Source: a virus (lineage: Duplodnaviria; Caudoviricetes). From it: DNA of 53,017 nt. Below the pieces are notes generated by a model that was not told the origin of the DNA, did no database searches, and saw only the letters and a list, made by a program, of their open reading frames with translations. The stretch is taken from the IMG/VR virus record IMGVR_UViG_3300034195_000009, positions 1 through 53,017 of that record; one strand, given 5' to 3'. The position numbers were made by a program, and so were the translations under genes. Numbering within the stretch: position 1 is the first letter of the stretch; each line of letters starts with the position of its first letter. Shown here one piece after another: positions 840-46,385 of this stretch.

Positions 840-1087
840 AACCTTTCGGTTCGCTTGTCTTGAAACCGTTCGATTCAAACCATTCGTTCGGTCGCCCCTA
901 AAGGGCCACCCGAACGGATGCGATATATAACCTTTCGCGAAAGGTTCCGAACGGTTCGAAAGGTTAGACGCTCAACCTTTCGGTCGGACTGTCGATCAGT
1001 ACCGAAAGGTTCCGAACGGTTAGGGCATCGGTGCAGGTGGGAGGATGTTGCAACCTTTCGGTTCGCGCCGAAAGGTTCCGAACGGTT
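840..1087. repeat. Iteron-like cluster CGAA(A/C)GGTT in both orientations; putative replication origin
   Basis: Forward copies at 938, 948, 957, 1003, 1013, 1069, 1079; reverse copies at 840, 864, 929, 974, 1052 plus a variant at 878; 19-mer CGAAAGGTTCCGAACGGTT occurs 3 times; directly downstream of the primase-helicase. Confidence 0.8.
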
Positions 1088-3251: not shown

Positions 3252-3433
3252 CTGATGGCCTGGCATTCTGGGCAGAAGACGCCGTTCGATCGGTGCTCGC
3301 CCCCGGCGAAATCCTCATCCTTGTAGAGCGGCACGACGTCGACGACCAGCCAGTATTCGAGTTCGTCAGAGTCCCGAGCCCGTCGACGGCAGCCGGTGCA
3401 GCGTAGGTCCTGAACGTTCCCGACCTGCTTCAT
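3248..3433 (-). CDS. Small Zn-binding hypothetical protein
   Basis: CTGC...CPEC; stop overlaps the primase start. Confidence 0.55.
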   Translation of the reverse strand: MKQVGNVQDLRCTGCRRRARDSDELEYWLVVDVVPLYKDEDFAGGEHRSNGVFCPECQAIR

Positions 3434-9917: not shown

Positions 9918-10321
9918 CGGTTCGCCATCCTGGTCGAGGCCATCCGACCGGCCTTGACGGCCTTCCCGATGCCCTGTGGTCCGGCCGCTGCCAGCCGAGC
10001 CCGGAAGGCCGTCCGGCGCTGCCTGCGTGCCTCCTGATGAGCCAGGATGCGCGCTACCTTGGCGGGGGCCATGGCGGCTTCACGAGCCTCCCGCTGAGCC
10101 TCGTAGCGCTCCAGCCGGGCGGCTTCGAGCCGGGCCTGTTCCGCGGTGCGTTCCTGGCGCGTCGCCCGGCGATTCTGGTAGCGACCGAGATCGCGGACCG
10201 CGCGCCGGATGGCGTTGCGGCCGACGGCCAGTCGGTCGCCGACGATGGTCGCCCGGGTTCCCTGCGCCAGCAGTTCATCGCGCTGGCGAATCAGGTTCGC
10301 CATCAGTTCCTTGTCGCTCAT
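9914..10321 (-). CDS. Basic coiled-coil hypothetical protein
   Basis: Arg/Ala-rich helical ORF, coupled at both ends. Confidence 0.5.
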   Translation of the reverse strand: MSDKELMANLIRQRDELLAQGTRATIVGDRLAVGRNAIRRAVRDLGRYQNRRATRQERTAEQARLEAARLERYEAQREAREAAMAPAKVARILAHQEARRQRRTAFRARLAAAGPQGIGKAVKAGRMASTRMANR

Positions 10322-10518
10322 GATGAGAAGTCCCTACAGCCGCACACAAGCGGCCCGTCGTAGTCGTGTGAGTGGAATCGGTCGAGCGTTCCGGCCTTCG
10401 GGCACTTGCGTGAGGTGCCGTCACCGATGCGCTTGGTACCGGCCCAGATCGGGGCCCGCGTGCATTCGAGGTGAACCCCGGCGCCGTGCTGGTCGTCCAG
10501 TTGCTGCCTGGCGGTCAC
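10318..10518 (-). CDS. Small Cys/His-rich protein
   Basis: Coupled ORF; CGC motif. Confidence 0.5.
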   Translation of the reverse strand: MTARQQLDDQHGAGVHLECTRAPIWAGTKRIGDGTSRKCPKAGTLDRFHSHDYDGPLVCGCRDFSS

Positions 10519-11671: not shown

Positions 11672-12070
11672 CTATCCGAAGAACTTGAAAGCCAGCCCAA
11701 GAACCAATCCAGCAAGCCCGGCCAGCGCTGTAAAGAGCTTCCAGCTGGCGTCATATCCGGAGGACCTGCCCGAGTTGACGTTCATCCGCTTGGACAGGTC
11801 GATAACGATCTTCTCCAGCGCCTCGAATTGCGCCATCGTCGCCACTCCGCTCCGTAGCTCATTCAGCAGTTCGAAGCGCTTGTCGGCGGAGAGCTCCGCC
11901 TTCTGCACGGCCTCCTTAGCCGCCAGGAGTGCGGCCTGCACCGCGCGATCGGCCGCCAGCAGCGCGGCTTCGAGGGCTTTCTGGCTGGCCTCGTACCGCT
12001 GCTCGTAGCGCCGATCGCGCTCGTCCATCAATTCATGAAGATGAGCCAATTTCTCGTCATCGGTCGTCAT
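11672..12070 (-). CDS. Coiled-coil protein with C-terminal TM helix (lysis cassette)
   Basis: Helical body, hydrophobic C-terminus. Confidence 0.65.
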   Translation of the reverse strand: MTTDDEKLAHLHELMDERDRRYEQRYEASQKALEAALLAADRAVQAALLAAKEAVQKAELSADKRFELLNELRSGVATMAQFEALEKIVIDLSKRMNVNSGRSSGYDASWKLFTALAGLAGLVLGLAFKFFG

Positions 12071-12359
12071 CGATGCCCAACCTCGCCTCGATCCGTGCGA
12101 AGCGATGAAGGTTCTCTTCGTGGCGCCGCTCATCGCGAGCGTCGCGCTCTTGGGCCAGCTCTTTCAAGGCGTCGAGCCTGGCCACGATTCCCGGAACGGT
12201 TCCGTTGGAAATGGGCGCCGTATTCTTCACGGCCTTCTGAACTTCCAGCGCAGAGGCGCGGAACTTGAACCATTGCCAGATGGTCGCGGCGATCGTGACC
12301 AGGGCCAGCGATGCGAAACCGATCCAGTCGGTCGGAAGATCTTTCAATTCTGTGAACAT
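12057..12359 (-). CDS. Membrane protein with N-terminal TM and coiled coil (lysis cassette)
   Basis: WIGFASLALVTIAATIWQW; position after the holin. Confidence 0.6.
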   Translation of the reverse strand: MFTELKDLPTDWIGFASLALVTIAATIWQWFKFRASALEVQKAVKNTAPISNGTVPGIVARLDALKELAQERDARDERRHEENLHRFARIEARLGIDDDR

Positions 12360-12395
12360 CAGATCGGCGTCCTTTTCCGAAGGCCCCCGGAAATG

Positions 12396-12431
12396 GCTCA
12401 ACCCCTCACACGGCGGGGTGAGGGGTTGAGC
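12396..12431. terminator. Strong hairpin after the holin
   Basis: 14-bp inverted repeat GCTCAACCCCTCAC/GTGAGGGGTTGAGC. Confidence 0.55.
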
Positions 12432-12441
12432 GCTCATGGGG

Positions 12442-12750
12442 TTACTTGACGAGGGAGCGCTGAGCGACAGCGGCGACGCCCGTCGGCTTCCAGAAGCCGT
12501 AATAGACGGCCACGCCGACGATGAACGTCCCCGCCGCGGCGAGTAGGCCCTGGCCGAGGTCGTAGGTGACGTTCGCCTGAGCCGCCGTGGCGATCTCGGT
12601 CAGCAGGCCGGACGCTGTGGAGAGAAGCAGGAGAAGGGTCGATTTCGCGCCGGGGGACCAAGTCGCCTTCGTGACCAGGCCGACCAGCACCGGCAGTAGG
12701 ACGGCGATGGCGAACTGGAGGAGCTGAAGACCGGAGAGTGAGAAACGCAT
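12442..12750 (-). CDS. Putative holin
   Basis: ~3 TM helices, LPVLVGLVT...YYGFWKPTG; downstream of the endolysin. Confidence 0.7.
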   Translation of the reverse strand: MRFSLSGLQLLQFAIAVLLPVLVGLVTKATWSPGAKSTLLLLLSTASGLLTEIATAAQANVTYDLGQGLLAAAGTFIVGVAVYYGFWKPTGVAAVAQRSLVK

Positions 12751-12776
12751 GTCACGCCTGCAATCTGATGGTTGGG

Positions 12777-12914
12777 TTAGCCGATCGTGAGGGGTCCGCT
12801 GGCCAGCACCCAGAAGGCGAGACCGGCGCAGAGGAGGACCGTTGGCCAGGCGCGCACAACTGCCGACCAGATGCCAGCGGCCAGGAAACACAGGAAGGCG
12901 AGCAGAAGGAACAT
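12777..12914 (-). CDS. Small 2-TM membrane protein (45 aa; not in ORF track)
   Basis: MFLLLAFLCFLAAGIWSAVVRAWPTVLLCAGLAFWVLASG; start overlaps the endolysin stop. Confidence 0.6.
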   Translation of the reverse strand: MFLLLAFLCFLAAGIWSAVVRAWPTVLLCAGLAFWVLASGPLTIG

Positions 12915-14038
12915 CAGGGACGCGCCAGCCAGGCCTCTATGGCCGCCACGATGGCCGCGGAGTCACCCGCTGGTAGGTCGGCGGCGATGGCAGCGGCCAG
13001 CGCCGGAATGTCGATCGTCGGCGTCGACAGACCGGCGACCTTGGCGGCCAGGGCGTCGATCTTCTGGATGGCCGTTTCGAGCCGGGTGCGATCTTCGGCC
13101 CGATCGACGCGCCCGCCATAAGTGAGCGCCTCGCGGATGCTGGACAGGGTGCCGACGGGCGCCGGGAAGATCGTGTTCTTGACCAGGTCAGCCTCGCCCT
13201 GGGAGAGCGCCCAGGTTTTATTGATGACCGCCGTGGCGATCGCGTCGATTTCTGCTGTGGTCAGGGCCACGTCGATACCTCCGATGAGTGATTCGAGCTG
13301 AGCGAGGGTGCCCGTCCACAGATCGCCGTCGACGCCGGAGCCGAGGCCCGGAACCTGCGAATGATCCGAGAACTGCACCATGACGGGATGATCCTTGGCG
13401 GGGCCGACGGGCATCCCGCCGAACGCCGTCGGATTGATGGTCGCCCCGGCGGCTTCCTTGGCGAGCGAGCCGTGAACCGGCGTATACACGCCGTTGCTAC
13501 TCCCGGCGTGCCACTCGACGACGAAGGGGTACTTCGGGTAGATCGTGCCCCCGCCGGACGAGGCCCACAGTCCGCGATTGGAGTAGACGAAGAGCGGTTT
13601 ACCCGGCATGCGCTGGGCGAACCGCTCGATGAAGCCGACGATGACGCCGGGGATCGCGGACGCCGGGCCGATCATCGAACCGGCTGGAGGCGGATCCCAG
13701 CGCGGATTGACGCTACGCAGCACCGACCGGAGGGGAGCCGAAGCGCCCAGGCCGCCGTGCTCGACGTCCAGGGCGAAACCGAGGGGGCGATTCAGGTCGC
13801 CCATGCAGGCCAGGAAGTGATCGCACTGCGCCGCACCGGATCCGGTCGTGTCGGCGAAGTGGTAGCCCATGGCAATCGTGTTGTGCGCCAGCGCGGATGC
13901 CAGGTTCTGCGCTCCGTGCGGATCGGTGAACCCGACCCCCTGCGAGGCTTTCGTGACGTAGAAATCCAGAACCGGCCAGGTGGACGCTGGAATAACGCCC
14001 TGATAACTGCCCGCCGTGTCGATACCGAGAGTGCTCAT
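12914..14038 (-). CDS. Endolysin, GH25 muramidase
   Basis: GIDT..YQG, KASQG, GYHFA, ALDVE, YSN, QFS, VDGD motifs; helical C-terminal tail. Confidence 0.85.
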   Translation of the reverse strand: MSTLGIDTAGSYQGVIPASTWPVLDFYVTKASQGVGFTDPHGAQNLASALAHNTIAMGYHFADTTGSGAAQCDHFLACMGDLNRPLGFALDVEHGGLGASAPLRSVLRSVNPRWDPPPAGSMIGPASAIPGVIVGFIERFAQRMPGKPLFVYSNRGLWASSGGGTIYPKYPFVVEWHAGSSNGVYTPVHGSLAKEAAGATINPTAFGGMPVGPAKDHPVMVQFSDHSQVPGLGSGVDGDLWTGTLAQLESLIGGIDVALTTAEIDAIATAVINKTWALSQGEADLVKNTIFPAPVGTLSSIREALTYGGRVDRAEDRTRLETAIQKIDALAAKVAGLSTPTIDIPALAAAIAADLPAGDSAAIVAAIEAWLARP

Positions 14039-22483: not shown

Positions 22484-22776
22484 GGATCGTCGTCCTGATT
22501 CGCCCCGGCCCGTCGGCGGCGCTCCGGCACGTCTGCGAGCACTGCCGGGATCGCCACTGGCCGTCCGCTCCGGCCTTCAAGCAGGACGGCGTGCCCTTGG
22601 AGTACGAGGGCAGCTACTGCGCCAACTGCGGCCATGAGCTGCCCCCGGTGCACCCCGTGTGCTGCGCCTGGTGTTCGAAGCAAGGCTACATCGACTATGA
22701 CCGGGGGTTGGATATATCGGGCGAAGGTAATGAGTGGTACTGTCCGAAGCACCGCAATCCAGACAATCGAAGGTAG
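22480..22776 (+). CDS. Cys-rich multi-Zn-finger protein
   Basis: CEHC, CANC, CAWC, CPKH. Confidence 0.6.
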   Translation: MRIVVLIRPGPSAALRHVCEHCRDRHWPSAPAFKQDGVPLEYEGSYCANCGHELPPVHPVCCAWCSKQGYIDYDRGLDISGEGNEWYCPKHRNPDNRR

Positions 22777-22781
22777 GCACC

Positions 22782-22964
22782 ATGACCGACTATCTGACAC
22801 CGGCCGAAGTCGCCCGAGCGTTCTCCGTCGACCCGAAGACGGTGACCCGCTGGGCGAAGGCCGGGCGGCTCTCGTGCATCCGCACCCTCGGCGGTCACCG
22901 CCGTTTCGATCGGGCCGAGGTTGAGGCCCTGCTGGCTCGCTCGGCAGGAACGCGCCATGCCTGA
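22782..22964 (+). CDS. bldC: BldC-family MerR-like transcriptional regulator
   Basis: LTPAEVA..F.VDPKTVTRWAKAG.L..IRTLGGHRR closely matches the Streptomyces BldC signature. Confidence 0.92.
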   Translation: MTDYLTPAEVARAFSVDPKTVTRWAKAGRLSCIRTLGGHRRFDRAEVEALLARSAGTRHA

Positions 22965-23471: not shown

Positions 23472-23737
23472 AGCATCCTCGACCGCGCTGCGCCGGATGT
23501 GAATTGACGCCGGAGCAGCTTGCCTACGGATTCTTTGCGGATATCGGTCAGTCGGCCGATGACTACGTCGAACAGGAAGAGGGCACCTTCGATCCGGAGA
23601 CCGGTGCCTTCCTCTGCGATGGGTGTTACATCGAGTTCGGCATGCCGACCGGACCGCGCGGCGGCTGGAAGGCAACCCCTGCCAATCTCTTCGCGATTGG
23701 AATCGAACGCGAGATTGAGATCAGAGTCGAAGGATGA
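23468..23737 (+). CDS. Hypothetical Zn-binding protein
   Basis: CAGC...EEGTFDPETGAFLCDGCYI. Confidence 0.6.
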   Translation: MKHPRPRCAGCELTPEQLAYGFFADIGQSADDYVEQEEGTFDPETGAFLCDGCYIEFGMPTGPRGGWKATPANLFAIGIEREIEIRVEG

Positions 23738-24099
23738 CTACCGCCTACGACGTCGAGCACTGCGGCAAGCACGCGGAGGATCGACGCAAGTGGATCGAGC
23801 TGGACCCCCAATCAGATACGGCCAAGCGCCTCGTCCGACCGGGGATCCGGCTCGTCCAGGTGGGCAGCGCAGCGAACCAGATGCGTCACCAACCGTCCTT
23901 CATGGACGACTTTCGGCGCATCGTCGGCGAGCAGACCAAGCTGATCGCTGAGATCTGCGCCAGTCGGGAGAACTGCGGCGAGGCCCCGCCGGATACCCGC
24001 TGCCCGAAGTGCCGCGTCGAGCGCTGCCCGATCTGCGGCGAATGCAAGAACATCAGTTGCACCGCTGACCAGTGGTGCGAAGAAAGGTGCACCCCATGA
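23734..24099 (+). CDS. Hypothetical Cys-rich protein
   Basis: CPKC, CPICGEC. Confidence 0.55.
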   Translation: MTTAYDVEHCGKHAEDRRKWIELDPQSDTAKRLVRPGIRLVQVGSAANQMRHQPSFMDDFRRIVGEQTKLIAEICASRENCGEAPPDTRCPKCRVERCPICGECKNISCTADQWCEERCTP

Positions 24100-24554
24100 C
24101 CCATCTGCCCCCGGATGTCCCCAGCCGATGGACGTCCGTCCCCTACCCTGGAACGATCCCGCCACGACGCACCGGGGCCATCGCGCTGGCCGTCTTCCTC
24201 GCGGTTGTCGTCGCCCTCGCCTGGACGGTGATCGCGCTGTTCGCCAGCTCCGCGCCGGTTGCCTCTCCCTCGGCCAGCACAGCATCCCCCGTCATCCTCG
24301 ATCCGAAGATCGAAGCGGCGAAGCGGATCCTTGCCGGATACCGAGCCAACCCCCAGCCGGGCGACGTGTACACGATCAGCCCGGAACGACTGGTTTACAT
24401 GGTCGCCCAAGAGTGCTCACAGCGGAAGCTTTCCGGCCAGGGCCTCGGCGTCGATCGCTGGCGCCGTGAGGGTCTGCTCATGAGTGGTGGTGCGCCGCCG
24501 ATCCCCTGCTGGGTGAAACCCCCGAACGACTTCACGACCATCCTCGGCAATTGA
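24096..24554 (+). CDS. Membrane-anchored hypothetical protein
   Basis: Single TM helix followed by a Ser/Pro linker. Confidence 0.6.
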   Translation: MTHLPPDVPSRWTSVPYPGTIPPRRTGAIALAVFLAVVVALAWTVIALFASSAPVASPSASTASPVILDPKIEAAKRILAGYRANPQPGDVYTISPERLVYMVAQECSQRKLSGQGLGVDRWRREGLLMSGGAPPIPCWVKPPNDFTTILGN

Positions 24555-24560
24555 ACGGCA

Positions 24561-24601
24561 GAAGGCCCGGACTCCCGTCGCTGGGAGTCCGGGCCTTTCT
24601 T
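24561..24601. terminator. Terminator between convergent operons
   Basis: 15-bp stem AAGGCCCGGACTCCC/GGGAGTCCGGGCCTT followed by TCTT. Confidence 0.8.
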
Positions 24602-24612
24602 GCGTTTGGGAC

Positions 24613-25314
24613 TCAGCTCGGCAGCCGGACACCGTTCTGTGAGTACCGGCCGTCGGCCACGTGCAGCACTCCGGCCGCTTGCAATTTCTTCACCTGGTAG
24701 TCGACCGAGTTCCGCGGCCGGTCCAGCTTGCGAACGATCTCCGCCAGCGTCGCCGGTTCGTCGACGGCCGACAGGATCAGCGTCGGCCAATCACCCTCGA
24801 CCGATTGGAGCAGAGCCGAACGAGGGGGCTCGGAAGCGGTCATGATCGGCCGCACGATCGTTTCTGGGGAACTTTCAGCTGTCACCCGAGCATCCGTGAC
24901 GGTGATGTGCCCCAGGCTGGCAGCGAGGCCCAGGACGATGACCGGCAGCGTCGAGACAGCCGCCGTCACGCCCCATGGCGCCTCGTGGACTCCCGCCGAG
25001 ACCATCACGTGCGAGACGGCCTGGCCGACGGCGCCGAGCGCCAGCGCGCCGATTGATGAGATCTTGGCGAAACGCTCGGCACGCCGAGAGGCCCTGCCAC
25101 TCAGCCAGACGTACAGGGCATAAGCGGCGTAGGTCTCCACCCCGACCGGCAGCAGAATGGCCGTGTCCAGCCGCCAGGAGGCCAGCGGCGTACCTGGCAG
25201 CGGATGCACCACGCCGAAGCCGGTCAGGGCGCCGATCATCACCCAGCCGGACCAGACGCCGACAAAGGCGGGTAGGGCCAGGACGTAAATCGGCCAGCGG
25301 ACGAGCGGTTTCAC
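24613..25314 (-). CDS. SpdA/DUF2637-like membrane protein with C-terminal wHTH
   Basis: PAFVGVWSGWV...HPLPG...LPVGVETYAAYAL...GQAVSH...LPVIVLG multi-TM block plus HTH; architecture typical of actinomycete conjugative-element spread proteins. Confidence 0.65.
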   Translation of the reverse strand: MKPLVRWPIYVLALPAFVGVWSGWVMIGALTGFGVVHPLPGTPLASWRLDTAILLPVGVETYAAYALYVWLSGRASRRAERFAKISSIGALALGAVGQAVSHVMVSAGVHEAPWGVTAAVSTLPVIVLGLAASLGHITVTDARVTAESSPETIVRPIMTASEPPRSALLQSVEGDWPTLILSAVDEPATLAEIVRKLDRPRNSVDYQVKKLQAAGVLHVADGRYSQNGVRLPS

Positions 25315-25348
25315 AACGATCTCCCGTCGATCGGTTGGATTGCGATTT

Positions 25349-25510
25349 CTAGCCGCGGACTTCTGTCGAACCCAGAGGGTCCGGATTGATGGGCGGCGCC
25401 TTCGGCCCGACGCAACTCTCCCGGTGATTCGCGTCCCAGGTCGTGACCTCGGCCAGCGATCGAGTCACGATCTTCGAACCGCACCGGTTGCATTCCATTT
25501 CGATCCGCAT
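25349..25510 (-). CDS. Small Zn-ribbon protein
   Basis: CNRC...W...H..C. Confidence 0.5.
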   Translation of the reverse strand: MRIEMECNRCGSKIVTRSLAEVTTWDANHRESCVGPKAPPINPDPLGSTEVRG

Positions 25511-26343
25511 CACTTCAGCCCCTTGGTGAGCGCCCAGGCCTTCGAGGCGGCCCAGAGTTTCAGGTCGTCGGCCGTGGCGACCGGGGTCGGCGTCGGGACG
25601 GGAGCCGGTGCGCTGATCGGCACCGGCTGGGTGAAGTCGCCGGACTCCGAAAGCAGCCGCTCCATCACGGCGTAGGGGATCCGGCAGGAACCCCGGACGC
25701 CCCAGCCAGCGCCCCACGAGTTGTCCACCAGGAAGACCTGCGCCGAGACGTCGACACCGGTCACCGCCAGCTCATGGCCGCCGCGGACGTACGACGTCGA
25801 TGTCAGCTTCAGCGTGCCGTCGGCCGCCGGGGCGTCGAAGGACGAATACCAGTTGATGCCGATCATGCCGGGCCCGACCTGCAGGGCCTTGACCATGTCG
25901 GCCAGAGAGAAGGCGTGCAGGTACCCGGCGGCCAGGCCGTGCGTCTGCATCGCCTTCGCCACCGAGAGGCCATCGCTGCCCGTGTCGTCCGGCGGATAAG
26001 TTCCGGGGTAGGTGTCGATCGCCGTCGCCCAGCCGTACAGCGAGACGGCGCCCGCTTCCTTCCAGGCTCCCGTGCCGAAGGCCTTCGATGCAGCATCGCC
26101 GGACACCTCGAAGAGCGGCGACGTGCCCAGCGCGCCCATGGCGGCGTTGCCCGTGCAGCTACCCAGAGAGCCCTGATCCAGGATCGGAATCCGGCGCGCC
26201 CAGCTGACCGAGATCTCAGACAGGCCGTCAGTCGGCACGGCGAAGGCCCGCGAACGCGGGTCGTGGTAGACATGCCTGCCCAGCCGGTAGTCCAGGCCTT
26301 CCTCGGATTCGGTCTCGGCGATGTTGCGACGGTAGGGGATCAT
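25510..26343 (-). CDS. Papain-like (C1) cysteine peptidase
   Basis: DQGSLGSCTG, GGHE, NSWGAGWG catalytic motifs. Confidence 0.85.
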   Translation of the reverse strand: MIPYRRNIAETESEEGLDYRLGRHVYHDPRSRAFAVPTDGLSEISVSWARRIPILDQGSLGSCTGNAAMGALGTSPLFEVSGDAASKAFGTGAWKEAGAVSLYGWATAIDTYPGTYPPDDTGSDGLSVAKAMQTHGLAAGYLHAFSLADMVKALQVGPGMIGINWYSSFDAPAADGTLKLTSTSYVRGGHELAVTGVDVSAQVFLVDNSWGAGWGVRGSCRIPYAVMERLLSESGDFTQPVPISAPAPVPTPTPVATADDLKLWAASKAWALTKGLK

Positions 26344-26663
26344 TCCTCGTCCTCCAGAAGTTCAGCGGGTCGCGGCGGAATCCGGAGGGATCCGCCGCGG
26401 CGGACTGTCGTAGCGATCACTGTCACCGCGACGATGAACACAACGGCGAGCGCCGCTGCGATGATGCCGATCCAACGGAGATCCACGCTCGGCATGGCGA
26501 AGGTGGGCCCGTAGGTGTGTGCGATCACGAAACCGGCGACCAGCGCCGTGATACCCCAGCCGACGGCGATCTTCGTCCGATGCCAGAGGATCAGGCCCTT
26601 CTCGTGCCGCTTGCCCCACTCGTGGAAGGCGGCCTTCGAGGCTTCCTCGACCATCTTGCCCAT
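26340..26663 (-). CDS. 2-TM membrane protein (possible Spd-like accessory)
   Basis: Two hydrophobic helices; coupled to the TraA-like gene. Confidence 0.55.
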   Translation of the reverse strand: MGKMVEEASKAAFHEWGKRHEKGLILWHRTKIAVGWGITALVAGFVIAHTYGPTFAMPSVDLRWIGIIAAALAVVFIVAVTVIATTVRRGGSLRIPPRPAELLEDEE

Positions 26664-27109
26664 CAGATAGTCACGTCCATCTCGCCGCGGCCGGTGCGCT
26701 GCGTGGTGACCGGCTCACAGTGCAGGCGCCACTGCTGGGCGACCAGCGACGCGATCCGGGCTTCCTCCATCTGCAGCTCCGCCAGGTGCAGGATCAGCTT
26801 GCGCATCCGCCGGGCCACCACGAGCCGATCGACGCCGAAGGGCCACTTCGAGGCCTTACGGATCCCGAGGTGCACCGTGTCGGCGCCGACGACGATCGCG
26901 TCATGACCGATCACGGCATGCGCCCGGATGCCTTCCAGCCACTGCAGGAGACCGGTGCCCTTCAGGATCTCATCCTGCGCTTCGGCCGGGTGGCGAACCT
27001 TGCCGCCACCGCCGGGGATGGACGCGCGGCCGGTGCCGACCGAGCGCTTGGGGTTGCGCCGGGCGCCCGGCGTGTTCGGGCCCCCGAACTCGGGGATGCT
27101 ACTCGTCAT
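26663..27109 (-). CDS. TraA-like plasmid transfer accessory protein
   Basis: Gly/Arg-rich N-terminus plus helical ARRMRK region resembling pSN22/pJV1-type TraA; proximity to TraB; recognised by eye only. Confidence 0.45.
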   Translation of the reverse strand: MTSSIPEFGGPNTPGARRNPKRSVGTGRASIPGGGGKVRHPAEAQDEILKGTGLLQWLEGIRAHAVIGHDAIVVGADTVHLGIRKASKWPFGVDRLVVARRMRKLILHLAELQMEEARIASLVAQQWRLHCEPVTTQRTGRGEMDVTI

Positions 27110-27130
27110 CTCTCACTCTCCGTATGCGTA

Positions 27131-27226
27131 GCCGATATGTCGATTCGGGATCCGGAGCCGACATATCGGCCCACGTCCCTTATGCGCGCGCGTGCGTGAG
27201 GCTGAGAACGACATTCGACATATCGG
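27131..27226. repeat. CGACATATCGG motif cluster upstream of the TraA-like gene
   Basis: Copies at 27131-27142 (reverse), 27157-27170 and 27216-27226; the first two form a 12-bp inverted repeat. Confidence 0.75.
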
Positions 27227-27236
27227 TTACTCCGCG

Positions 27237-27509
27237 TCACGGGCTAGGCTCCAGCCACACGCCGACGGACGCGGCGTCATAGCGCACCGGCCAATCGAAC
27301 ATGCGAGCCAGTCGAGCGGGATCCGAGCCCATACAGCCTGGCGCATGCGCCGAGCGCGGAGCGCCGGGCCGAAGGCAAGTGCAGCCGAGCTCGGTCTTGA
27401 TCCGCTCGCCGTCCTCCATCGGCATCACCCAGCGGGCGCCGATCTGTGAGGACCGATGGTCCTCTGTCCATTGCTGGACCTGAGCGACCAGCTCGGCGCG
27501 CGTCGTCAC
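27237..27509 (-). CDS. Hypothetical protein
   Basis: GTGA coupling. Confidence 0.5.
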   Translation of the reverse strand: MTTRAELVAQVQQWTEDHRSSQIGARWVMPMEDGERIKTELGCTCLRPGAPRSAHAPGCMGSDPARLARMFDWPVRYDAASVGVWLEPSP

Positions 27510-27973
27510 TTCGAGATCCTCTCGGCTTCGTCGCGAATGGTCTGGATCTGATCCGGCCAGGCGGACGTCTGTCGAGATCCCGCGTTCCTCGCCGAGTTCT
27601 CCCAGCCAGCGCACGCCATGCCGACCAGTTCGTGAAGCCGGGCGACCGTCGCCAGCAGCGCGCCGGTACCGGACTCCATCGGATCGAAGGCGACCGGAGC
27701 GCTGAGGACGACCGGCTCTGGCATGCAGGCGTGCTCGGCGCGCCAGAGATCGACGACTCCGCCGAGCACGTTCAGAGCGAAGCCCGAAACCTCGACCGAT
27801 GAGCCACAGTGGCACCTCTCGACGATCCGAGGCTCACTCGCTGGCGCTTCGTGCCGATGCTCGCCTCTCCAATCGCAGACCTGAGCCATGATCGAGGCGA
27901 TCGTGTGCCCGGCGCCACCCAACGCGATCGAGGATCCGCACCCGCATTTCTCGCTGCAATCGGTCTCGTTCAC
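27506..27973 (-). CDS. Protein with duplicated CxCGSS...W..EH motif
   Basis: EKCGCGSSI...WRGEH and ERCHCGSSV...WRAEH. Confidence 0.6.
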   Translation of the reverse strand: MNETDCSEKCGCGSSIALGGAGHTIASIMAQVCDWRGEHRHEAPASEPRIVERCHCGSSVEVSGFALNVLGGVVDLWRAEHACMPEPVVLSAPVAFDPMESGTGALLATVARLHELVGMACAGWENSARNAGSRQTSAWPDQIQTIRDEAERISK

Positions 27974-28317
27974 GGCTTCCACCCGTTCATGGTCCCGTAG
28001 AGCCGGAGTTCGTCGACGTCCAGAGCCAGGCCCTCGTCAGTGGCGCGGACGCCGGGCCAGCGACGCTCAAGCGCCGAACTCAGCGCTGCGGCTTCAACCT
28101 CAAGGCCGGACGTGAACTCCTCCGCTGTGAAGACGCCCTTCTTGATCAGCAGGCCCACGAGAGCGCTCAGCTCGGCGCGCTGGATGAGGGTCGCCTCCCG
28201 ATGGTCGCGGATGGCATCGCACTCCGGATCGCCCAGCGGACGAGTGCCCAGCTGCCACCCGGCGAACCAGGTGCGCCACTTGCCGAGGCGATTCACATTG
28301 GGCAGCGCCTCACTCAT
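27970..28317 (-). CDS. Hypothetical protein
   Basis: Overlaps the traB stop. Confidence 0.65.
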   Translation of the reverse strand: MSEALPNVNRLGKWRTWFAGWQLGTRPLGDPECDAIRDHREATLIQRAELSALVGLLIKKGVFTAEEFTSGLEVEAAALSSALERRWPGVRATDEGLALDVDELRLYGTMNGWKP

Positions 28318-30349
28318 CGCCGATGGCCTCCAATCCGATCATCAGCGTGTCGGCGCCGGGGAAGATCCGATACCGGCCGTGCGCCAACCGTTCGGCGCCG
28401 TGCTTCTCGACCAGCGCGGCGATCAGTCGCTGAAGGGCCGGGCGTTGCGAGGGGGTGATCCCCCGCGTCGACAGCCACGGCTCGGTCAGCTGCATCGAGT
28501 CGATGTCGACGGGCTTCCCCGGATCCGTGGCGAGCACATCGCGCAGGATCTCGGCGAACCGGGCCCGGCGCTGCGCCAAGGTAAGCGGCGTGTACACGGG
28601 CCCGTTCTGCGTCAGGTCGGCGACGTCCTCGACGTCGATCCCCTCCCGCGGATTCACCTGGATGCCCTCGATTTCCTCGGGTCGCTTCGGCATGGCGTTC
28701 GGCTCCTCTTCGTCATCGTTCGTCAGATCTTCGGCATCGGGCGCCGGGGCCTCGGTACGGGCCCCGGCGAACTTCGCTTGCTTCAGGTACAGCGGACCGG
28801 CCGCGGCTTGCTCTGCGGCGGTCAGCGGCCCGCGGAGATGCTTCGCTTCGGCAACGGCTCGCCGAACCTTCTCGGCATCGGCGAGATAGATCCGAGCCGG
28901 GATCGCCCAACGTTCCCGTTCGACACCGGGGGCGACCAGCACGTGAAGTCCGGGCGTCAAGTTGCGCCACATCTCGGGGAAGACTCCGGCGTCGGCGATC
29001 TCGTCCGGCAGGATCCATCCCGAAGCGTGGCCGTCCCCACTGCCGAAGGCGGCGATGATGCCTAAGTTATGCCGAGCGTCGGTATTGAAGGACGTGTCTG
29101 CGCCGCGCTGCATCGAAACGTCCAGGTAGATACCCACCGAGCGGACGGCTTGCGTCAGTTGGGTGAAGCTGTCGGAGTCCGGCAAGATTCGGCTGGCCTC
29201 CTCGATGTGACAGAAGATCCAGCGCAGCCCGCATCCGGGCTCCCAGATCTGCAGCCCCATCTTGCCGAGGTGATTCGCGCGGACCTTGACCAGCCGATCG
29301 AGTGCGTCCAGCATCTGGTGCGCCTGCTGGACCGTCTCAACGCACCAGTCGATGCCGTCCTCGATTGGACCGAGACTCTGCCGTCCCTTGATCGGGTCGG
29401 CCCACCATACGGCCGTCTCGGCCCGGGTGAGAATCTCAGCACATGCCAGCTGGGCGAAGATCGTCTTACCGGCGCCAGGCATGCCGAGCGCCACGCCGAC
29501 GGCGGCCGGGGGCAGCGGGTCCTTCGGGTCGGATCGGCCGGTCAGCGTGATGCGCTCCACCTCGCCGTCTTCATAGACGCCCACCTCGATCGGCTCGGCG
29601 ATGGACCCCCCAGGCCTTGACGGGCCAGGCCACGGGGTCGGCTTCGAGAGGGAATCCTTCAGAACGACCTGCACCTCAGCTTCGTCGGCACGGGTCCTGG
29701 ATCCGATGACCCGTACGGCGCCGATGGCCACGTGGCGAAGAGCTGCGATCTTTCGCACGGCGGCCTGCAGTTGGGTGAAATCCTGACCGCCCGAAAGTCG
29801 GACGCGCCAGCGCTCCCGGACTGCCGTCTTCTCGATCAGCTTCACCTTGGCACCGACCACGCCCAGCATCTCGTCCATCGGGGTGACCGACTCGCGGCCG
29901 TCCTGGCCGTCGCCGCGCACGTGATCGAAACGGGGGACCAGCCAGGAGATCGCCCATGCCGAACCGATCAGCACCCAGAGCCAGGTCCACGTCGAATTGC
30001 CGAACGGTCCGATGACTTCGTGAACGGCCAGCGAGATGACCGCCGTACCCACCGAGAGCCCGACGTGTACACGGATCAGCGCCGAGCGCGCGTGCGTCTG
30101 CAGGAAGGCCAGCGTGCCGAGTCCGGCACCGAGAATGACGATCAACGCCGGAACCCAGTAGACGGTCGGCGCCGAACCGCCGAAGACATGCAGCGCCTGC
30201 CCAACGATCGGCAGCAGGGCCAGCGGTAGGACGAAGGGGAGCACCCAACGATCGGCGCCTCCGCGGCGCCCGATGTCGAACGGGGAACGCAGTGCCGAAC
30301 GCTTCGGCACCTTCGGTACCGAACGCTTCGTTTTCGCCGTAGTGGTCAC
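28310..30349 (-). CDS. traB: TraB-like FtsK/SpoIIIE DNA translocase (Streptomyces-type conjugation ATPase)
   Basis: ~4 N-terminal TM helices; Walker A GMPGAGKT; DPIKG; Walker B HIEEA; RSVGI...SMQR motif; acidic linker and C-terminal wHTH ending GRYR; start 30349 or 30376. Confidence 0.8.
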   Translation of the reverse strand: MTTTAKTKRSVPKVPKRSALRSPFDIGRRGGADRWVLPFVLPLALLPIVGQALHVFGGSAPTVYWVPALIVILGAGLGTLAFLQTHARSALIRVHVGLSVGTAVISLAVHEVIGPFGNSTWTWLWVLIGSAWAISWLVPRFDHVRGDGQDGRESVTPMDEMLGVVGAKVKLIEKTAVRERWRVRLSGGQDFTQLQAAVRKIAALRHVAIGAVRVIGSRTRADEAEVQVVLKDSLSKPTPWPGPSRPGGSIAEPIEVGVYEDGEVERITLTGRSDPKDPLPPAAVGVALGMPGAGKTIFAQLACAEILTRAETAVWWADPIKGRQSLGPIEDGIDWCVETVQQAHQMLDALDRLVKVRANHLGKMGLQIWEPGCGLRWIFCHIEEASRILPDSDSFTQLTQAVRSVGIYLDVSMQRGADTSFNTDARHNLGIIAAFGSGDGHASGWILPDEIADAGVFPEMWRNLTPGLHVLVAPGVERERWAIPARIYLADAEKVRRAVAEAKHLRGPLTAAEQAAAGPLYLKQAKFAGARTEAPAPDAEDLTNDDEEEPNAMPKRPEEIEGIQVNPREGIDVEDVADLTQNGPVYTPLTLAQRRARFAEILRDVLATDPGKPVDIDSMQLTEPWLSTRGITPSQRPALQRLIAALVEKHGAERLAHGRYRIFPGADTLMIGLEAIGDE

Positions 30350-30355
30350 CCGAGG

Positions 30356-30393
30356 ACCGTAACATATATCGGGCATCTTGCCGACATATCGGC
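30356..30393 (-). promoter_or_regulatory. Probable leaderless traB promoter overlapped by GCCGACATATCGGC
   Basis: -10-like TACGGT 6 nt before GTG; 14-mer at 30380-30393 is identical to 27157-27170. Confidence 0.55.
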
Positions 30394-30710
30394 TAGGGCT
30401 TGGCTCCGGCTACCGCATTCCATGCCGAGTTCACGGCGTACTGTAGGTCCCCATCCGGCGCGAGGATGCCCTCACCACTGATCTGCGCATTGCTGGCGCA
30501 GATCCAGGCGAAGCTGTCTAGGAAGTCGGCCATAGCCGATCCGAGGACTCTGGTCGAGAGCACCTGGCGTGCCTGGTCAACTGCGGCGTTCCCGCTGGCG
30601 CCCTCGGCCGCCACGTTGAGCGCGGCGGCCACCATGGCGACGCGAACGCGACTGCGGAAGCCCTGATGAACGGCCAGATCTGCGCTGTCCTTCATTGACA
30701 TGCTTGTCAT
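30393..30710 (-). CDS. Hypothetical protein following the tail fibre
   Basis: GGGAG RBS; last gene of the tail cluster. Confidence 0.65.
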   Translation of the reverse strand: MTSMSMKDSADLAVHQGFRSRVRVAMVAAALNVAAEGASGNAAVDQARQVLSTRVLGSAMADFLDSFAWICASNAQISGEGILAPDGDLQYAVNSAWNAVAGAKP

Positions 30711-30743
30711 CTCCCTGTTTAGAATTCGGATGGCAATCCGTTA

Positions 30744-31373
30744 TTATATTGCTTCGTACAGCCCACTAAGTGACATGTTTCCGCCGGTCCCCGTATTGAA
30801 TGTAGTGTTGGTTAAGTAAGTTAATCCACAGTTAGCGGCTGCGGTCGGAACTTGTAGAACTGCTACATTCGATCCCCCGGAAAGCCACGCATAACCCAAG
30901 TAGTTAATTGTTCCCGTCCATAGTTTAAATAGTATCCCGTGCTCAAGTACGTTAGCAGCAGCAAACGGAAGTGTTAGTGTCTGATTGCCAGTGCCCTGAG
31001 TAGTAGTGGTTCCAGCTTGAAGTAGAATGTGAAAGCCTACGGCCTTAGCGCCTATTAAACAGTAGTTGGCAGTAATAGTGCCATTGCCAATAACTGGCTG
31101 CGTGCCGCTGCTCGCCCAGGTGGGGGTATAGGCTTTCCATAAACCTAGAGCCTGCCACGTCGAACCGTCGTAGAAAGTAAGGTAGTTGACGTCATTCAGC
31201 CAGGCCTGCATGCCTTCTACCGGCGAAGTGAGGAAAGCATCACGCGCCGAGGCATTGGCGAAACGCATAGTTGAATACGGGCCGATGGAATCGGCGAGAG
31301 CCTTCATCGCTCCTGATCCGTCGGCCTGATCGTCACCGAGCGGATATGTGAACCCGTAGCCGTTGGTTGCCAT
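30744..31373 (-). CDS. Minor tail/fibre protein with low-GC C-terminal domain
   Basis: RFANASARDA...PVEGM...YDGSTW...YTPTW...GNGT..Y pattern of actinophage minor tail proteins. Confidence 0.75.
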   Translation of the reverse strand: MATNGYGFTYPLGDDQADGSGAMKALADSIGPYSTMRFANASARDAFLTSPVEGMQAWLNDVNYLTFYDGSTWQALGLWKAYTPTWASSGTQPVIGNGTITANYCLIGAKAVGFHILLQAGTTTTQGTGNQTLTLPFAAANVLEHGILFKLWTGTINYLGYAWLSGGSNVAVLQVPTAAANCGLTYLTNTTFNTGTGGNMSLSGLYEAI

Positions 31374-31379
31374 CGTTCG

Positions 31380-32207
31380 TCACCTCTTATATGCGATCTT
31401 GAGCGCTCCGGATGAGCGATTGTCCGACAGTGAACCGAAGACTATGTAGGGATCACTGCCGGAGATGAAGCAGGCCAGGCCGTGCGCCGTTCCGTCAACG
31501 AAACGCTGCGCCCAGGACGCGGGAAAGCTGACCCACTTCGACGTGTTGACGGCGATCGATCCCAGGTTCGTACCGCCACCCTGCTTGCTCGGCGCACCGG
31601 CTGGCCTGCTCGCATTGGACAGCGTGTACACGGTCGGCTGGACGGCAGCGAAGACTCCGCCGGACACTCTCGTCAGATAGATCTGAGCGGACGTCACCGT
31701 GGCGCCGCTGAGCGCCGTATGGATTCCCGTCCCGTAGAACCAGCACCCGGTGTTGACGCCCCAACCGCCGTAATCGCCCTGGTGTGGCTGGGATGAATCG
31801 GTGCGCCACTGTCCGCCGCGATAGTCCCCCGTCGACTTCGCCGTGAAGGTCTGCGTGCCGGTGATCACCGTCTTCGGGGGGGCTGGGGCCACCGTTCCCG
31901 TCTTCGGCGGCGCCGCGATGACCGCGGGTGGCGGGATCGGCTGGCTGGGCGCCGGGGCGATGGCCCTGGGGGCTACCGGATCGACCGGGTTCACGATGGC
32001 GTCGAGCACGATGCGCCGGGATCCCTGCATCACAATCAGCACGGTGTCGTTGACAGCCGGAATGTAGGCCCTGCAATGGGGAAGGGTCATCAGAGCGCCG
32101 TTCACACTTACGCCGATGACTCCCGCCCCCGGAGCGGAAACAACCGTGCCCATCTGGAAACTTGATCCCGCGGAGTCGGGAAGCAGATCGGAGAGAGTAA
32201 GCCCCAT
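31380..32207 (-). CDS. Minor tail protein
   Basis: N-terminal OB-like segment, Pro-rich linker, QGDY...GCWFYG domain; position. Confidence 0.7.
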   Translation of the reverse strand: MGLTLSDLLPDSAGSSFQMGTVVSAPGAGVIGVSVNGALMTLPHCRAYIPAVNDTVLIVMQGSRRIVLDAIVNPVDPVAPRAIAPAPSQPIPPPAVIAAPPKTGTVAPAPPKTVITGTQTFTAKSTGDYRGGQWRTDSSQPHQGDYGGWGVNTGCWFYGTGIHTALSGATVTSAQIYLTRVSGGVFAAVQPTVYTLSNASRPAGAPSKQGGGTNLGSIAVNTSKWVSFPASWAQRFVDGTAHGLACFISGSDPYIVFGSLSDNRSSGALKIAYKR

Positions 32208-44423: not shown

Positions 44424-44914
44424 CAGGGCCTCCTGGCAATGCAGCGCGTGTCAGCCGGGCTCGGCTGGTAGTCCACTTCGATGTCGACGAAGCCGACCGC
44501 TTCGAGCACGGCCAGCAGGTCGTCGGGATTGACGTTCTCGTAGTGCTCCCAGTCCCGGATCGGAGCCTCATCGAGTGCGGAATGAGCGCCGCGGCCGGGT
44601 CCGGCCATGGTGGCGATGAAGCGTCCGGCAGGAAGCAACGCCTCGAAGGCCGTGGCCACGATGTCCGGCCAGCTCTTCGTGTGCTCGAAGGTCTCACAGC
44701 AGACGACGACGTCATAGCCGCGATCGGGCGTCCAGCTGGCCGCGTCGGCGACAACATCCACGCCGTCACCCGGAAGGATGTCCAGCGTCGTGTACACGTC
44801 GGCCATCGGGAAGAGCGACTTGACCGAACCGTTGATGTCCCGCCCGCCCAGATCGAGCACGGTCCGCGCCGCTACGGCGTGATCGGCAACCCATTGGTGA
44901 GCCTGGTCATGCAC
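44423..44914 (-). CDS. Class I SAM-dependent methyltransferase
   Basis: VLDLGGRDING, GVDVVADA, YDVVVCCETFEH, L.P.G. Confidence 0.85.
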   Translation of the reverse strand: MHDQAHQWVADHAVAARTVLDLGGRDINGSVKSLFPMADVYTTLDILPGDGVDVVADAASWTPDRGYDVVVCCETFEHTKSWPDIVATAFEALLPAGRFIATMAGPGRGAHSALDEAPIRDWEHYENVNPDDLLAVLEAVGFVDIEVDYQPSPADTRCIARRP

Positions 44915-46385
44915 GACGGCCTCCGTACTGCGCCAGCCTGGCGCGGAACGTTTCCTTGTCGGCCAGTGCCGTCGACTGGCCCAGCGTGTACACGTCGTCA
45001 GGCTCGCCCTTGCCGTAGGCCGGATGCAGGTGCTCGACCACTGAGCCGAAGGCCATCCCGAACGCCCCGCGCTGCTTGGCTGCGGCGATGATCTCGTCAT
45101 CGACGTACCAGTGCCCGTACCCCTCGTGCGCCAGAACCTTCGGGCCGTCCCAGCCCCCGCCGAACTCATCGACGTACGACCGGCGGATCAGGAAGTGCGT
45201 CGCGTGCTCGCCAGACATCACCCGAGGGTTCCCCAGATCGAGCGTGCCGACGACATCGCGCCCCTCGGTGGCGACCATCTGCGCATGATCCAGCCATCCG
45301 GGCTGGAAACGGACGTCATCGCCTACCAGGAAGAGGAACTCTTCGTCCGTCTCCTGGTAGGCCAGATTGACTTTCTCGGCGAAGGTTCCGTGCTCGCCAA
45401 TCTCACACGAGTTGATCAGGACGTCGGCGCCAGCCTCGCGCCAGGCCCGCTCCGTCTCGGGATCGCTCGCATCGACAACGGCGTAGACCGTAGCAAGCCC
45501 CGTGCTGGCCCTCAGGCTGGCCATGAAGGGCGCGGCGTTCTGCGGTCGGCGCATTACTGGCACGACGATCGCCGTGGGCTCCAGGGCGGGCGGAGCGACC
45601 GCGCTGGACCAGTAGTCCGGCTCCGAAACCCAGATCGACTTGTGATGTGAGGTACGTACACCGGTATGCACGAAGACGGGGAAGCCAGCGGCCCCGGCGC
45701 GCATGCAGAAGCTGAGATCCTCGCCGAAGAGCTTGCCAGGCGTTGCCGGATTCGGGATCCGGGAATACCACTCATCGCCGACATTCTCGCGGATCCGCTC
45801 GAAGACGCTGCGATGAATCAGAATGCACGCCGATCCCGTGCCGGAGCATTGAACCAGCGTGTTGACCGGGTAGGCCTGGCGTGCCAGGAATCCGGATTCG
45901 CCGTCGACCTTCGCCCAGTCGAGGATGACCGGGCGCGGTGCGCAGCGGAAGCCGCCCATACCGTCGCCGCCGACTTCCTTCCAGGAGAAGCACAGGCCGC
46001 CGACGATCGGGCGGGTGATCGAGTCGGCGACAGCTACCAGACGGTCGATCGTGTCCGGCGAGAAGCCCATGTCGGAATCGACCCACCAGAGCCATTCGGC
46101 GTCGCGGTCGTCGAGGAACTCGCGGACAGCTGTGTTCCGCGCCGCGGGGAGATTGTCGTCACCCTCGCACCGGACGGCGATCCATCCGCCGCGGATGACG
46201 CGCTCCTGCGAGCCGAGATCGTGAGCGATGAGCTCGGTCAGCGATGCGTGCCAGCTGTGAGAGACGCGGTCCGCGTTGTCGCCGTGGATGTAGGCGACCG
46301 CGACGGCGCCGCCCATGTTGCGGGCGGCCTTCGCCGTCTCCGCGGCTTTGCGGGCGGCTTTGCGGATCTCGGGGAGCGTGCTCAC
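44907..46385 (-). CDS. Glycosyltransferase with two GT-A (GT2-like) domains
   Basis: Domain 1: ARN, WVDSDM, GEDLSFC; domain 2: IVVP, LVGDD, HWYVDDE, VEHLH. Confidence 0.85.
   Translation of the reverse strand: MSTLPEIRKAARKAAETAKAARNMGGAVAVAYIHGDNADRVSHSWHASLTELIAHDLGSQERVIRGGWIAVRCEGDDNLPAARNTAVREFLDDRDAEWLWWVDSDMGFSPDTIDRLVAVADSITRPIVGGLCFSWKEVGGDGMGGFRCAPRPVILDWAKVDGESGFLARQAYPVNTLVQCSGTGSACILIHRSVFERIRENVGDEWYSRIPNPATPGKLFGEDLSFCMRAGAAGFPVFVHTGVRTSHHKSIWVSEPDYWSSAVAPPALEPTAIVVPVMRRPQNAAPFMASLRASTGLATVYAVVDASDPETERAWREAGADVLINSCEIGEHGTFAEKVNLAYQETDEEFLFLVGDDVRFQPGWLDHAQMVATEGRDVVGTLDLGNPRVMSGEHATHFLIRRSYVDEFGGGWDGPKVLAHEGYGHWYVDDEIIAAAKQRGAFGMAFGSVVEHLHPAYGKGEPDDVYTLGQSTALADKETFRARLAQYGGRRA

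Follow-up and report, generated by a model that had tools for sequence, protein, structure and literature searches.

A putative Streptomyces-type DNA-transfer module in the late-gene arm of an uncultured tailed phage

Phages are usually thought to spread as particles only. Plasmids of mycelial actinomycetes, by contrast, pass in double-stranded form from hypha to hypha, and along hyphae, by means of one pump, TraB. The subject of this analysis is the region from position 24613 to 30393 of the IMG/VR virus record IMGVR_UViG_3300034195_000009, in which relatives of the plasmid transfer genes traB and traA lie directly after the tail genes of a tailed phage. The window, i.e. the whole stretch of DNA analysed, is the complete record, a single contig of 53,017 bases. 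Its head-and-tail set occupies the minus strand from 52990 down to 30744, as judged from PHROG matches, which identify TerL, portal, maturation protease, major head protein, glycosyltransferase, tape measure and tail proteins in this late arm. On the same strand follow traB (28310-30376), a traA-like gene (26663-27109), a gene for a protein with two transmembrane (TM) helices (26340-26663) and one for a membrane protein that has a winged helix-turn-helix (wHTH) domain at its C-terminus (24613-25314), interleaved with several small open reading frames (ORFs) and a gene of phage type. A sequence-only reading of this DNA had proposed that these genes form a Streptomyces-type conjugation module, with TraB, TraA-like and SpdA-like products, inside an intact tailed-phage genome.

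The product of traB is a protein of 688 residues, predicted to be a membrane-anchored FtsK-like translocase of double-stranded DNA of the Streptomyces plasmid type. The only NCBIfam family it matches is plasmid_TraB (NF041214; E 6.6e-97, 325.5 bits, model positions 20-586 of 639); among PHROG families, phrog_24831, which carries no assigned function, matches at E 4e-70, and a tblastn search of plasmids matched 51 records, 45 of them from Streptomyces, at 27-34% identity, many being annotated as traB. Hydrophobic N-terminal helices are indicated by hydropathy, in segments between residues 44 and 118. In an alignment with 11 relatives, G298, G301, G303 and K304 of the Walker A motif (GMPGAGKT) are invariant, as are the acidic pair E392/E393 and R424, and Q423 is nearly so; the C-terminal segment is also conserved and aligns with the C-terminus of TraB relatives. 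The profile of this alignment matches the FtsK motor structure 2iuu (E 2.7e-10), and also TcpA and EssC, whereas no FtsK or HerA family is matched directly by the protein in NCBIfam or Pfam. Compared with FtsK/SpoIIIE, the protein thus shares the homologous motor domain with its Walker A, Walker B and QR motifs, but its N- and C-termini follow TraB. Since plasmid_TraB is the sole NCBIfam match and the best plasmid matches are annotated traB, the ATPase belongs, within the FtsK superfamily, to its conjugative TraB branch, and has intact catalytic motifs. The sequence-only reading had described a TM protein with FtsK/SpoIIIE motifs on the strand of, and following, the tail genes, and this description holds, as does the expectation that it would side with conjugative TraB and not with the FtsK or HerA proteins of chromosomes. 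In a tree of 29 TraB-family rows, which includes no FtsK outgroup, the window protein forms a clade (SH-aLRT 100) with those of two related contigs, L001 (from IMG/VR) and L012 (from another metagenome), which are independent assemblies; the clade stands next to a third contig, L002.

The traA-like gene (26663-27109, minus strand) encodes 148 residues. Direct searches with this protein gave no match in Pfam, PHROG or NCBIfam (in the latter, 0 families at E <= 1 and at E <= 0.01), no match by tblastn against plasmids, the query alone in a word-indexed protein search and nothing by BLASTP against the TraA of plasmid pCQ4. When profiles were compared by hhalign, a four-sequence profile aligned with five plasmid TraA proteins (those of pSN22, pCQ4 and three others) with a probability of 87% (E 3.7e-6, 89 columns); an exhaustive profile search with the traA-like proteins returned 77 representatives at E <= 0.001 and, with 76 relatives aligned, the probability for TraA reached 95% (E 1.9e-8). 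Individually, 8 of the 76 relatives match the NCBIfam plasmid_TraA family (NF041213), weakly (best E 2.1e-4). The three top clusters in the ESM Atlas are PF28214 TraA-like (scores 0.90, 0.89 and 0.87), and local hidden Markov models of the traA-like proteins and of TraA cross-match in both directions. This profile-profile and language-model evidence supports the assignment of the product as a distant relative of TraA, in keeping with what the sequence-only reading had called it. Homologues come after traB in L001, L012 and L002, where the traA-like gene adjoins traB; in the window three ORFs stand between the two. A weak BLASTP match (33 residues, E 0.008 pairwise) to the 145-residue product of the gene after traB in pCQ4 was not counted.

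Between these ORFs and the traA-like gene, a 127-bp intergenic region contains three copies of the repeat CCGATATGTCG (27132-27226), two in direct and one in inverted orientation, of which two make a 40-bp palindrome. A single further exact copy, in the extended form GCCGATATGTCGGC, lies at 30382-30392 (minus strand), 5 nt upstream of the traB ATG. These four exact copies in 53 kb compare with 0.04 expected, and none of 100 shuffled sequences reached four; both the TraB match and the CCGATATGTCG cluster exceed what chance would give. At the same place the related contigs have repeats of their own, namely CGATTAT in L001 (three of four copies), CCGACCAA in L002 (seven of eight copies) and CGGAAAC in L012 (four of four copies). 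Published work on plasmid clt loci describes direct 8-bp repeats that are recognised by the cognate TraB (PMC4447253); operators of the regulator TraR are likewise described there as repeats. The CCGATATGTCG cluster is, therefore, a candidate clt, i.e. a set of TraB recognition repeats, or a candidate operator, and by analogy the C-terminal wHTH domain of TraB is predicted to be the part that would recognise 8-bp clt repeats. That the module has its own element-specific cis sites at a conserved position argues for function, whether they are clt or operator. Dense arrays of this kind were also seen in two TraB-bearing IMG/VR proviruses, in both cases just upstream of traA-traB: in L008 (8486-9075) an array of the 8-mer CGGTACCG (14 of 15 copies), and in L004 (8445-9116) an array of the 8-mer CGTGAACA in one orientation (11 of 12 copies). 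These, too, are candidate clt or operator arrays.

The two membrane proteins raise the question of a relation with the Spd proteins of plasmids. The 107-residue product of 26340-26663 (minus strand) has two hydrophobic helices by hydropathy, as the sequence-only reading had it, and a conserved N-terminal motif; it matches no family above any cut-off, and its homologues directly follow the traA-like gene in L001 (12581-12886) and L012 (12588-12932), so that it is a partner of that gene in relatives. The 233-residue product of 24613-25314 (minus strand) combines a hydrophobic N-terminal domain of about 140 residues (two segments above the hydropathy threshold, four by eye) with a C-terminal HTH_20 domain (E 6.3e-8). 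It had been called a DUF2637/SpdA-like protein with TM and HTH regions. The TM and HTH parts stand; neither Pfam nor hhalign matches it to DUF2637, and the name SpdA does not fit, the published SpdA being described as a zinc-finger protein that binds DNA and has 12-bp sps palindromes in its gene (PMC4170104), a description that misfits a membrane protein. The layout described for spdA of pEN2701 is resembled, in position only, by the three repeats upstream of the traA-like gene. By architecture, the 233-residue protein seems closer to SpdB than to SpdA: SpdB2 of pSVH1, compared by its description only, similarly combines a hydrophobic domain (four helices) with (non-specific) DNA binding but has no reported wHTH domain, whereas the window protein has one. 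The sole lead to DUF2637 is a weak Atlas match (rank 9, score 0.83). The counterparts by position in the related contigs do consist of DUF2637 plus wHTH (24.5 bits in L012, against a cut-off of 22.8, and 20.9 bits in L001).

The N-terminal domain of the 233-residue protein gave 2056 matches at E <= 0.01 among actinomycete proteins (55-65% identity), and the 19 genome loci retrieved for it (L013-L031) are all from Micromonosporaceae. At 10 of the 19, a TraB-profile match was found in a large ORF at most about 6 kb downstream of the membrane gene; ten further downstream ORFs that were scanned gave three FtsK_SpoIIIE matches and one HerA match, so that 14 of the 19 loci in total have a TraB-, FtsK- or HerA-like ATPase downstream within about 6 kb. 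Two Streptomyces plasmids have DUF2637 genes within their traA-traB operons, and pSN22 gives a weak DUF2637 signal in the second gene downstream of traB. Because of the DUF2637 genes in plasmid tra operons and the ATPase neighbours at the Micromonosporaceae loci, both membrane families are linked with conjugation, and in architecture they recall SpdB2 as described, not SpdA. The membrane family at these loci (at about 10001-10420 in each) is very conserved, is without a Pfam domain and is often named 'ABC transporter permease', a name that is probably wrong, as the loci look like transfer loci of the integrative and conjugative elements of actinomycetes (AICEs).

A second repeat, the palindrome CGTGTACACG, is dispersed over the genome in 15 copies (630, 3831, 11629, 18489, 24365, 28589, 30064, 31623, 37527, 40583, 40631, 44789, 44985, 50642 and 51542), against 0.02 expected, and its 8-mer core is found alone at 32784. 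All but two of the 16 GTGTACAC cores are within coding sequence, where they are read as Val-Tyr-Thr at 11 sites and as Arg-Val-His at three. Enrichment of the core is also seen in L001, with 13 copies over 19.9 kb, in L012, with 9 over 16.8 kb, and in L034, L035 and L039, all five being relatives of the window phage; each of 29 other loci compared has 0-1 copies. Inside traB itself there are two copies in the window, two in L001 and one in L012. The sites may be bound by a repressor, in the manner of 'stoperators', or be a target of another DNA-binding protein. When IMG/VR was scanned for CGTGTACACG sites in pairs, 17 loci emerged; three of them, L034, L035 and L039, are from relatives of the phage, but traB is present in none, and the scan is thus silent on a linkage between motif and module.

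As to how long the module has been part of this genome, the order tail genes, traB, traA-like, 2-TM and TM+wHTH is kept in both L001 and L012, and L002 has traB and the traA-like gene. Identity with the window is 48% (L001) and 38% (L012) for TraB, and 44% and 32% for the TraA-like protein; the tail genes common to the three contigs are 44-68% identical, and the gene downstream on the other strand is 63% (L001) and 53% (L012) identical. The distance from the tail genes to traB varies over 5-8 kb in L001 and L012. A contig from a second assembler (Logan; 34,721 bases, depth 53.2), probably from the same sample, covers 23500-31500 without difference, and bridges both borders of the module at even depth, which answers the call in the sequence-only reading for a coverage check at 24613 and 30393. 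In view of the synteny in L001 and L012 at 38-48% TraB identity, and of the presence of the lineage's palindrome inside traB, the module seems to have resided here for long and not to have been inserted recently, and a chimera is unlikely. The long domestication suggested from the interleaving of the genes is thus supported by the module order shared with related phage contigs.

The region has further features. Between the last tail gene and traB, on the same strand, stands the 105-residue ORF 30393-30710 (minus strand), which has no Pfam or PHROG match, no homologue in L001 or L012 by blastx and no BLASTP similarity to pCQ4 TraA. The three small, lineage-specific ORFs that separate traB from the traA-like gene, all on the minus strand, encode 115 residues (27970-28317; its start overlaps the end of traB, its G+C content at third codon positions (GC3) is high and no family matches it), 158 residues rich in Cys and His (27506-27982; recognised by inspection of the sequence, with no usable family match) and, probably, 89 residues (27237-27506; read from the sequence, with a GTG start that overlaps the preceding stop codon). 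In L001, L012 and L002, the first of them is missing from the interval that separates traB and the traA-like gene. Further downstream, 25510-26343 (minus strand) encodes a 277-residue papain-like peptidase of a phage family (Peptidase_C1, 21.2 bits with a cut-off of 20.7; phrog_16701, E 9.4e-50), an example of the interleaved phage-type genes that had been noted before, for which blastx finds no match within the module of L001 or L012. That the 2-TM protein and the peptidase might form a lysis cassette was considered and ranked low, as L001 and L012 keep the 2-TM gene by the traA-like gene without the peptidase, and a GH25 endolysin-like gene is found elsewhere. A possible ORF of 53 residues with a CxxC motif (25349-25510, minus strand) is doubtful, being the C-terminal part of the ORF 25349-25717, which has no Pfam or PHROG match. 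A hairpin with a 17-bp stem (24561-24598), between convergent gene blocks, is likely to be a bidirectional terminator that ends the tail/tra transcription unit. All module ORFs are open and have high GC3.

The rest of the genome is that of a siphovirus-like, uncultured tailed phage, apparently of soil actinomycetes. Its left arm codes for a Prim-Pol/AAA_25 primase-helicase, a Cas4-like exonuclease and a GH25 endolysin-like protein; the gene for the latter lies with its neighbours at 11672-14038, one neighbour weakly matching a membrane-channel helix. Pfam returned few matches for another 30 ORFs of this arm. The capsid and terminase proteins are just 33-34% identical to their counterparts in Gordonia and Mycobacterium phages, which marks the phage as a new actinophage lineage. 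The host may be a mycelial actinomycete, the nearest relatives of the 233-residue protein being in Micromonosporaceae. A peat metagenome is the sole sequencing run that contains the sequence of the record, and is probably its source. Six-frame searches of the window found no tyrosine integrase or resolvase-type recombinase, no ParA (AAA_31) and no GntR regulator, and no tRNA gene was found in the window. Among the features of phage-plasmids, therefore, structural genes, tra genes and the Prim-Pol/AAA_25 replicase are present, and ParA, integrase and resolvase were not found.

How frequent such modules are in phages was approached from several sides. No hit was obtained among 50,697 deposited phage records by megablast with the region and tblastn with TraB, a search in which close relatives may have been masked; nine contigs came from scanning IMG/VR with a TraB pattern, and scans of genomes and metagenomes with clade-specific TraB patterns found no relative. 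Eight of the nine IMG/VR contigs have phage hallmark genes, i.e. tail or portal homologues (L001, L003, L005), a TerL homologue (L009) or TerL matching phrog_9 (L002, L004, L007, L008). Each of the 11 phage-like contigs examined (the window, L001-L009 and L012) has a TraA or TraA-like ORF beside its traB. In the tree, the viral TraB proteins are scattered among those of plasmids and chromosomes, at no fewer than five separate positions, and that of L005 is identical, over the aligned columns kept, to a protein of Micromonospora saelicesensis. Our literature search found no description of TraA/TraB modules in phage lineages outside the pZL12 group, which is weak evidence of absence. With pZL12 and pCQ4 as precedents, the combination is fairly called rare rather than unprecedented, as the sequence-only reading put it; what is new here are the two related contigs with the same gene order, the element-specific repeat cluster, and the TraA/TraB pairs on all nine IMG/VR contigs found.

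Plasmid-phages that conjugate and form particles are, indeed, in print. For pZL12, replication, transfer and the formation of lytic phage are cited, and it is described as a singleton extrachromosomal actinophage, and pSLE1 is presented as its homologue, with ParA/ParB resembling those of pZL12 and two putative integrases. The pZL12 type (pZL12, pCQ3/pCQ4, pSLE1 and pFP4) resembles the window in having tailed-phage genes and traA/traB on one replicon. Within it, pCQ4 has a TraB that is among the best plasmid matches to that of the window (32.7% identity, E 1e-59), with terminase, portal and head-decoration genes 4 kb from its traB; however, TraB alone matches the window within the 21.5-kb stretch of pCQ4 compared. 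The elements of this type also differ in size (about 85-90 kb, against 53 kb for the window), in that the traA-like gene of the window follows traB and its module stands directly after the tail genes, and, for pSLE1 as described, in the ParA/ParB and putative integrases, none of which was found in the window. With the traR-traA-traB-spd loci with clt of pSN22, pSVH1 and pIJ101, the module has in common the TraB domain order, an adjoining TraA relative, small membrane proteins and element-specific repeats by traB; it differs in that no GntR regulator was found, the genes stand in inverted order, with three additional ORFs and a phage peptidase interspersed, its repeats are 11-mers of mixed orientation and the membrane protein is fused to a wHTH domain and is not detectably DUF2637. 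The AICE-type Tra loci of Micromonosporaceae share the N-terminal domain of the 233-residue protein (46-65% identical at 19 loci) and, in 14 of the 19, the ATPase, but there the membrane gene precedes the ATPase and is mostly without a C-terminal HTH_20.

Homology with the plasmid genes, motif integrity, conserved synteny and cis repeats are what the comparisons establish. On balance, we favour, with some confidence, the reading that the region is a genuine, intact and long-resident Streptomyces-type module for transfer of double-stranded DNA in the late-gene arm, which would pump phage DNA without virions. The mechanism, drawn from the homology with pSVH1, pSN22 and pZL12, would be as follows. 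TraB would form a membrane pore; its C-terminal wHTH domain would recognise the CCGATATGTCG cluster as a clt-like site; the FtsK-like motor would then pump double-stranded phage DNA, while replicating or plasmid-like, through septal cross-walls or into a hypha in contact, with the TraA-like, 2-TM and TM+wHTH proteins acting as Spd/Tra accessory proteins. Both the binding of DNA and the translocation of the phage genome by the module are thus predicted by analogy with the plasmid systems, and so is a second transmission route, independent of virions.

Several observations weigh against this reading. The score of TraB, 325 bits, is far under the NCBIfam equivalog cut-off of 800, and Pfam FtsK_SpoIIIE does not match the protein even at E 10, so that it is a divergent family member, a homologue and not an equivalog. 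The traA-like gene is downstream of traB, but upstream of it in pSN22 and pCQ4. For the TM+wHTH protein, DUF2637 (PF10935) is detectable neither by Pfam at E 10, nor by a six-frame search, nor by hhalign (0.2% and 0.1%). The CCGATATGTCG repeats could be operators, as two form a palindrome and one copy is at the traB start, and the TraB recognition repeats (TRS) of plasmids are direct. No GntR-type TraR/KorA was found, though plasmid traB is described as toxic without one. As integrase, resolvase and ParA were not found in a record that is possibly just 68% complete, there is no evident stable state inside the cell from which the phage could conjugate. Finally, IMG/VR classes the record as a linear virus, without end repeats, with a CheckV completeness of 68%; of the 'intact tailed-phage genome' first proposed, the head, tail and replication modules are there, and intactness is not borne out.

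A broader version of the preferred reading, possible but rather on the unlikely side, is that a non-integrating siphovirus lineage infecting mycelial actinomycetes uses domesticated TraA/TraB/Spd-like genes, along with recognition repeats of their own, as a 'movement' system that spreads an infection or carrier state through the mycelium without receptors or particles. One virion would infect one compartment, and the replicating double-stranded DNA would be pumped through cross-walls and hyphal contacts; the CGTGTACACG sites might serve for loading or tethering, and would then be bound by a protein of the module, e.g. the membrane-anchored wHTH protein, rather than by a repressor. The module might also work within one mycelium only, distributing an extrachromosomal prophage or replicating genome to compartments and spores in a partition-like manner, with no transfer to other individuals. 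The absence of ParA and integrase from the findings, along with the phage's own Prim-Pol/AAA_25 replicase with AACCTTTCGG 10-mer repeats just downstream, would suit such a role, which we consider unlikely: plasmid TraB mediates intermycelial transfer as well, the sequence does not separate the two roles, and par or int genes could lie outside a possibly incomplete record.

A function other than transfer, for which the phage would have taken over the TraB module as a membrane-pore 'kil' factor in host takeover or lysis timing, or for superinfection exclusion, with the repeats as timing operators, is quite improbable. In its favour, a CCGATATGTCG copy lies 5 nt from the traB start, two copies form a palindrome typical of operators, a phage peptidase and a holin-like 2-TM protein are found inside the module, and unregulated traB is reported as toxic (Kil-Kor); however, the full set of ATPase motifs and the C-terminal region are conserved with plasmid TraBs, the TraA-like and TM+wHTH genes are co-conserved in relatives that are without the peptidase at that place, and the separate GH25 endolysin-like gene has its own neighbours at 11672-14038. 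Least of all would one expect the module to be a passenger or an artefact, whether through recent insertion of a plasmid or AICE, as a remnant in decay or through chimeric assembly. The G+C content of the module (24-30 kb, 0.67), above that of the adjacent tail genes (0.61-0.63), and the origin of the record from a metagenome assembly with a CheckV estimate of 68% could be read in this way, but the G+C is equally high elsewhere in the genome (0.68 at 2-4 kb and 0.69 at 13-16 kb), the ORFs are open with high GC3, the synteny recurs in two other assemblies, GTGTACAC is found inside traB of the window, L001 and L012, and the Logan contig spans 23500-31500 without difference, though probably from the same sample.

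The combination of phage and tra genes is, then, not confined to the pZL12 family: an unrelated backbone keeps a four-gene module, with candidate recognition repeats, across deeply diverged relatives, and a minimum of eight further phage-like contigs, spread over several distinct parts of the TraB tree, have TraA/TraB pairs. Should the module work, the spread of these phages in soil would be underestimated by host range, receptor-based resistance and plaque counts alike, and TraB-bearing proviruses in culturable strains, such as the one behind L005, would make the question testable.

Some minor features of the window may be added. Just downstream of the Prim-Pol/helicase gene (1086-3266), five copies of the 10-mer AACCTTTCGG lie within 230 bp (840-1068), and a sixth at 3461; the six copies, in both orientations, are iteron-like and could mark a replication origin. 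The left end of this 65% G+C genome has a very A+T-rich stretch (40-130), and the Logan contig terminates at about position 107 of the window, as computed from the record coordinates; this end may be a genome terminus or a repeat. At 22734-22964, a protein of 76 residues is a DNA-binding protein of the HTH_17/MerR type (excisionase family; E 1.2e-13), despite no integrase being found, and two places in L025 have weak homologues of it. The two-domain glycosyltransferase encoded between the capsid and tail genes (44907-46385; phrog_34859, E 2.9e-22) might serve to glycosylate virion proteins.

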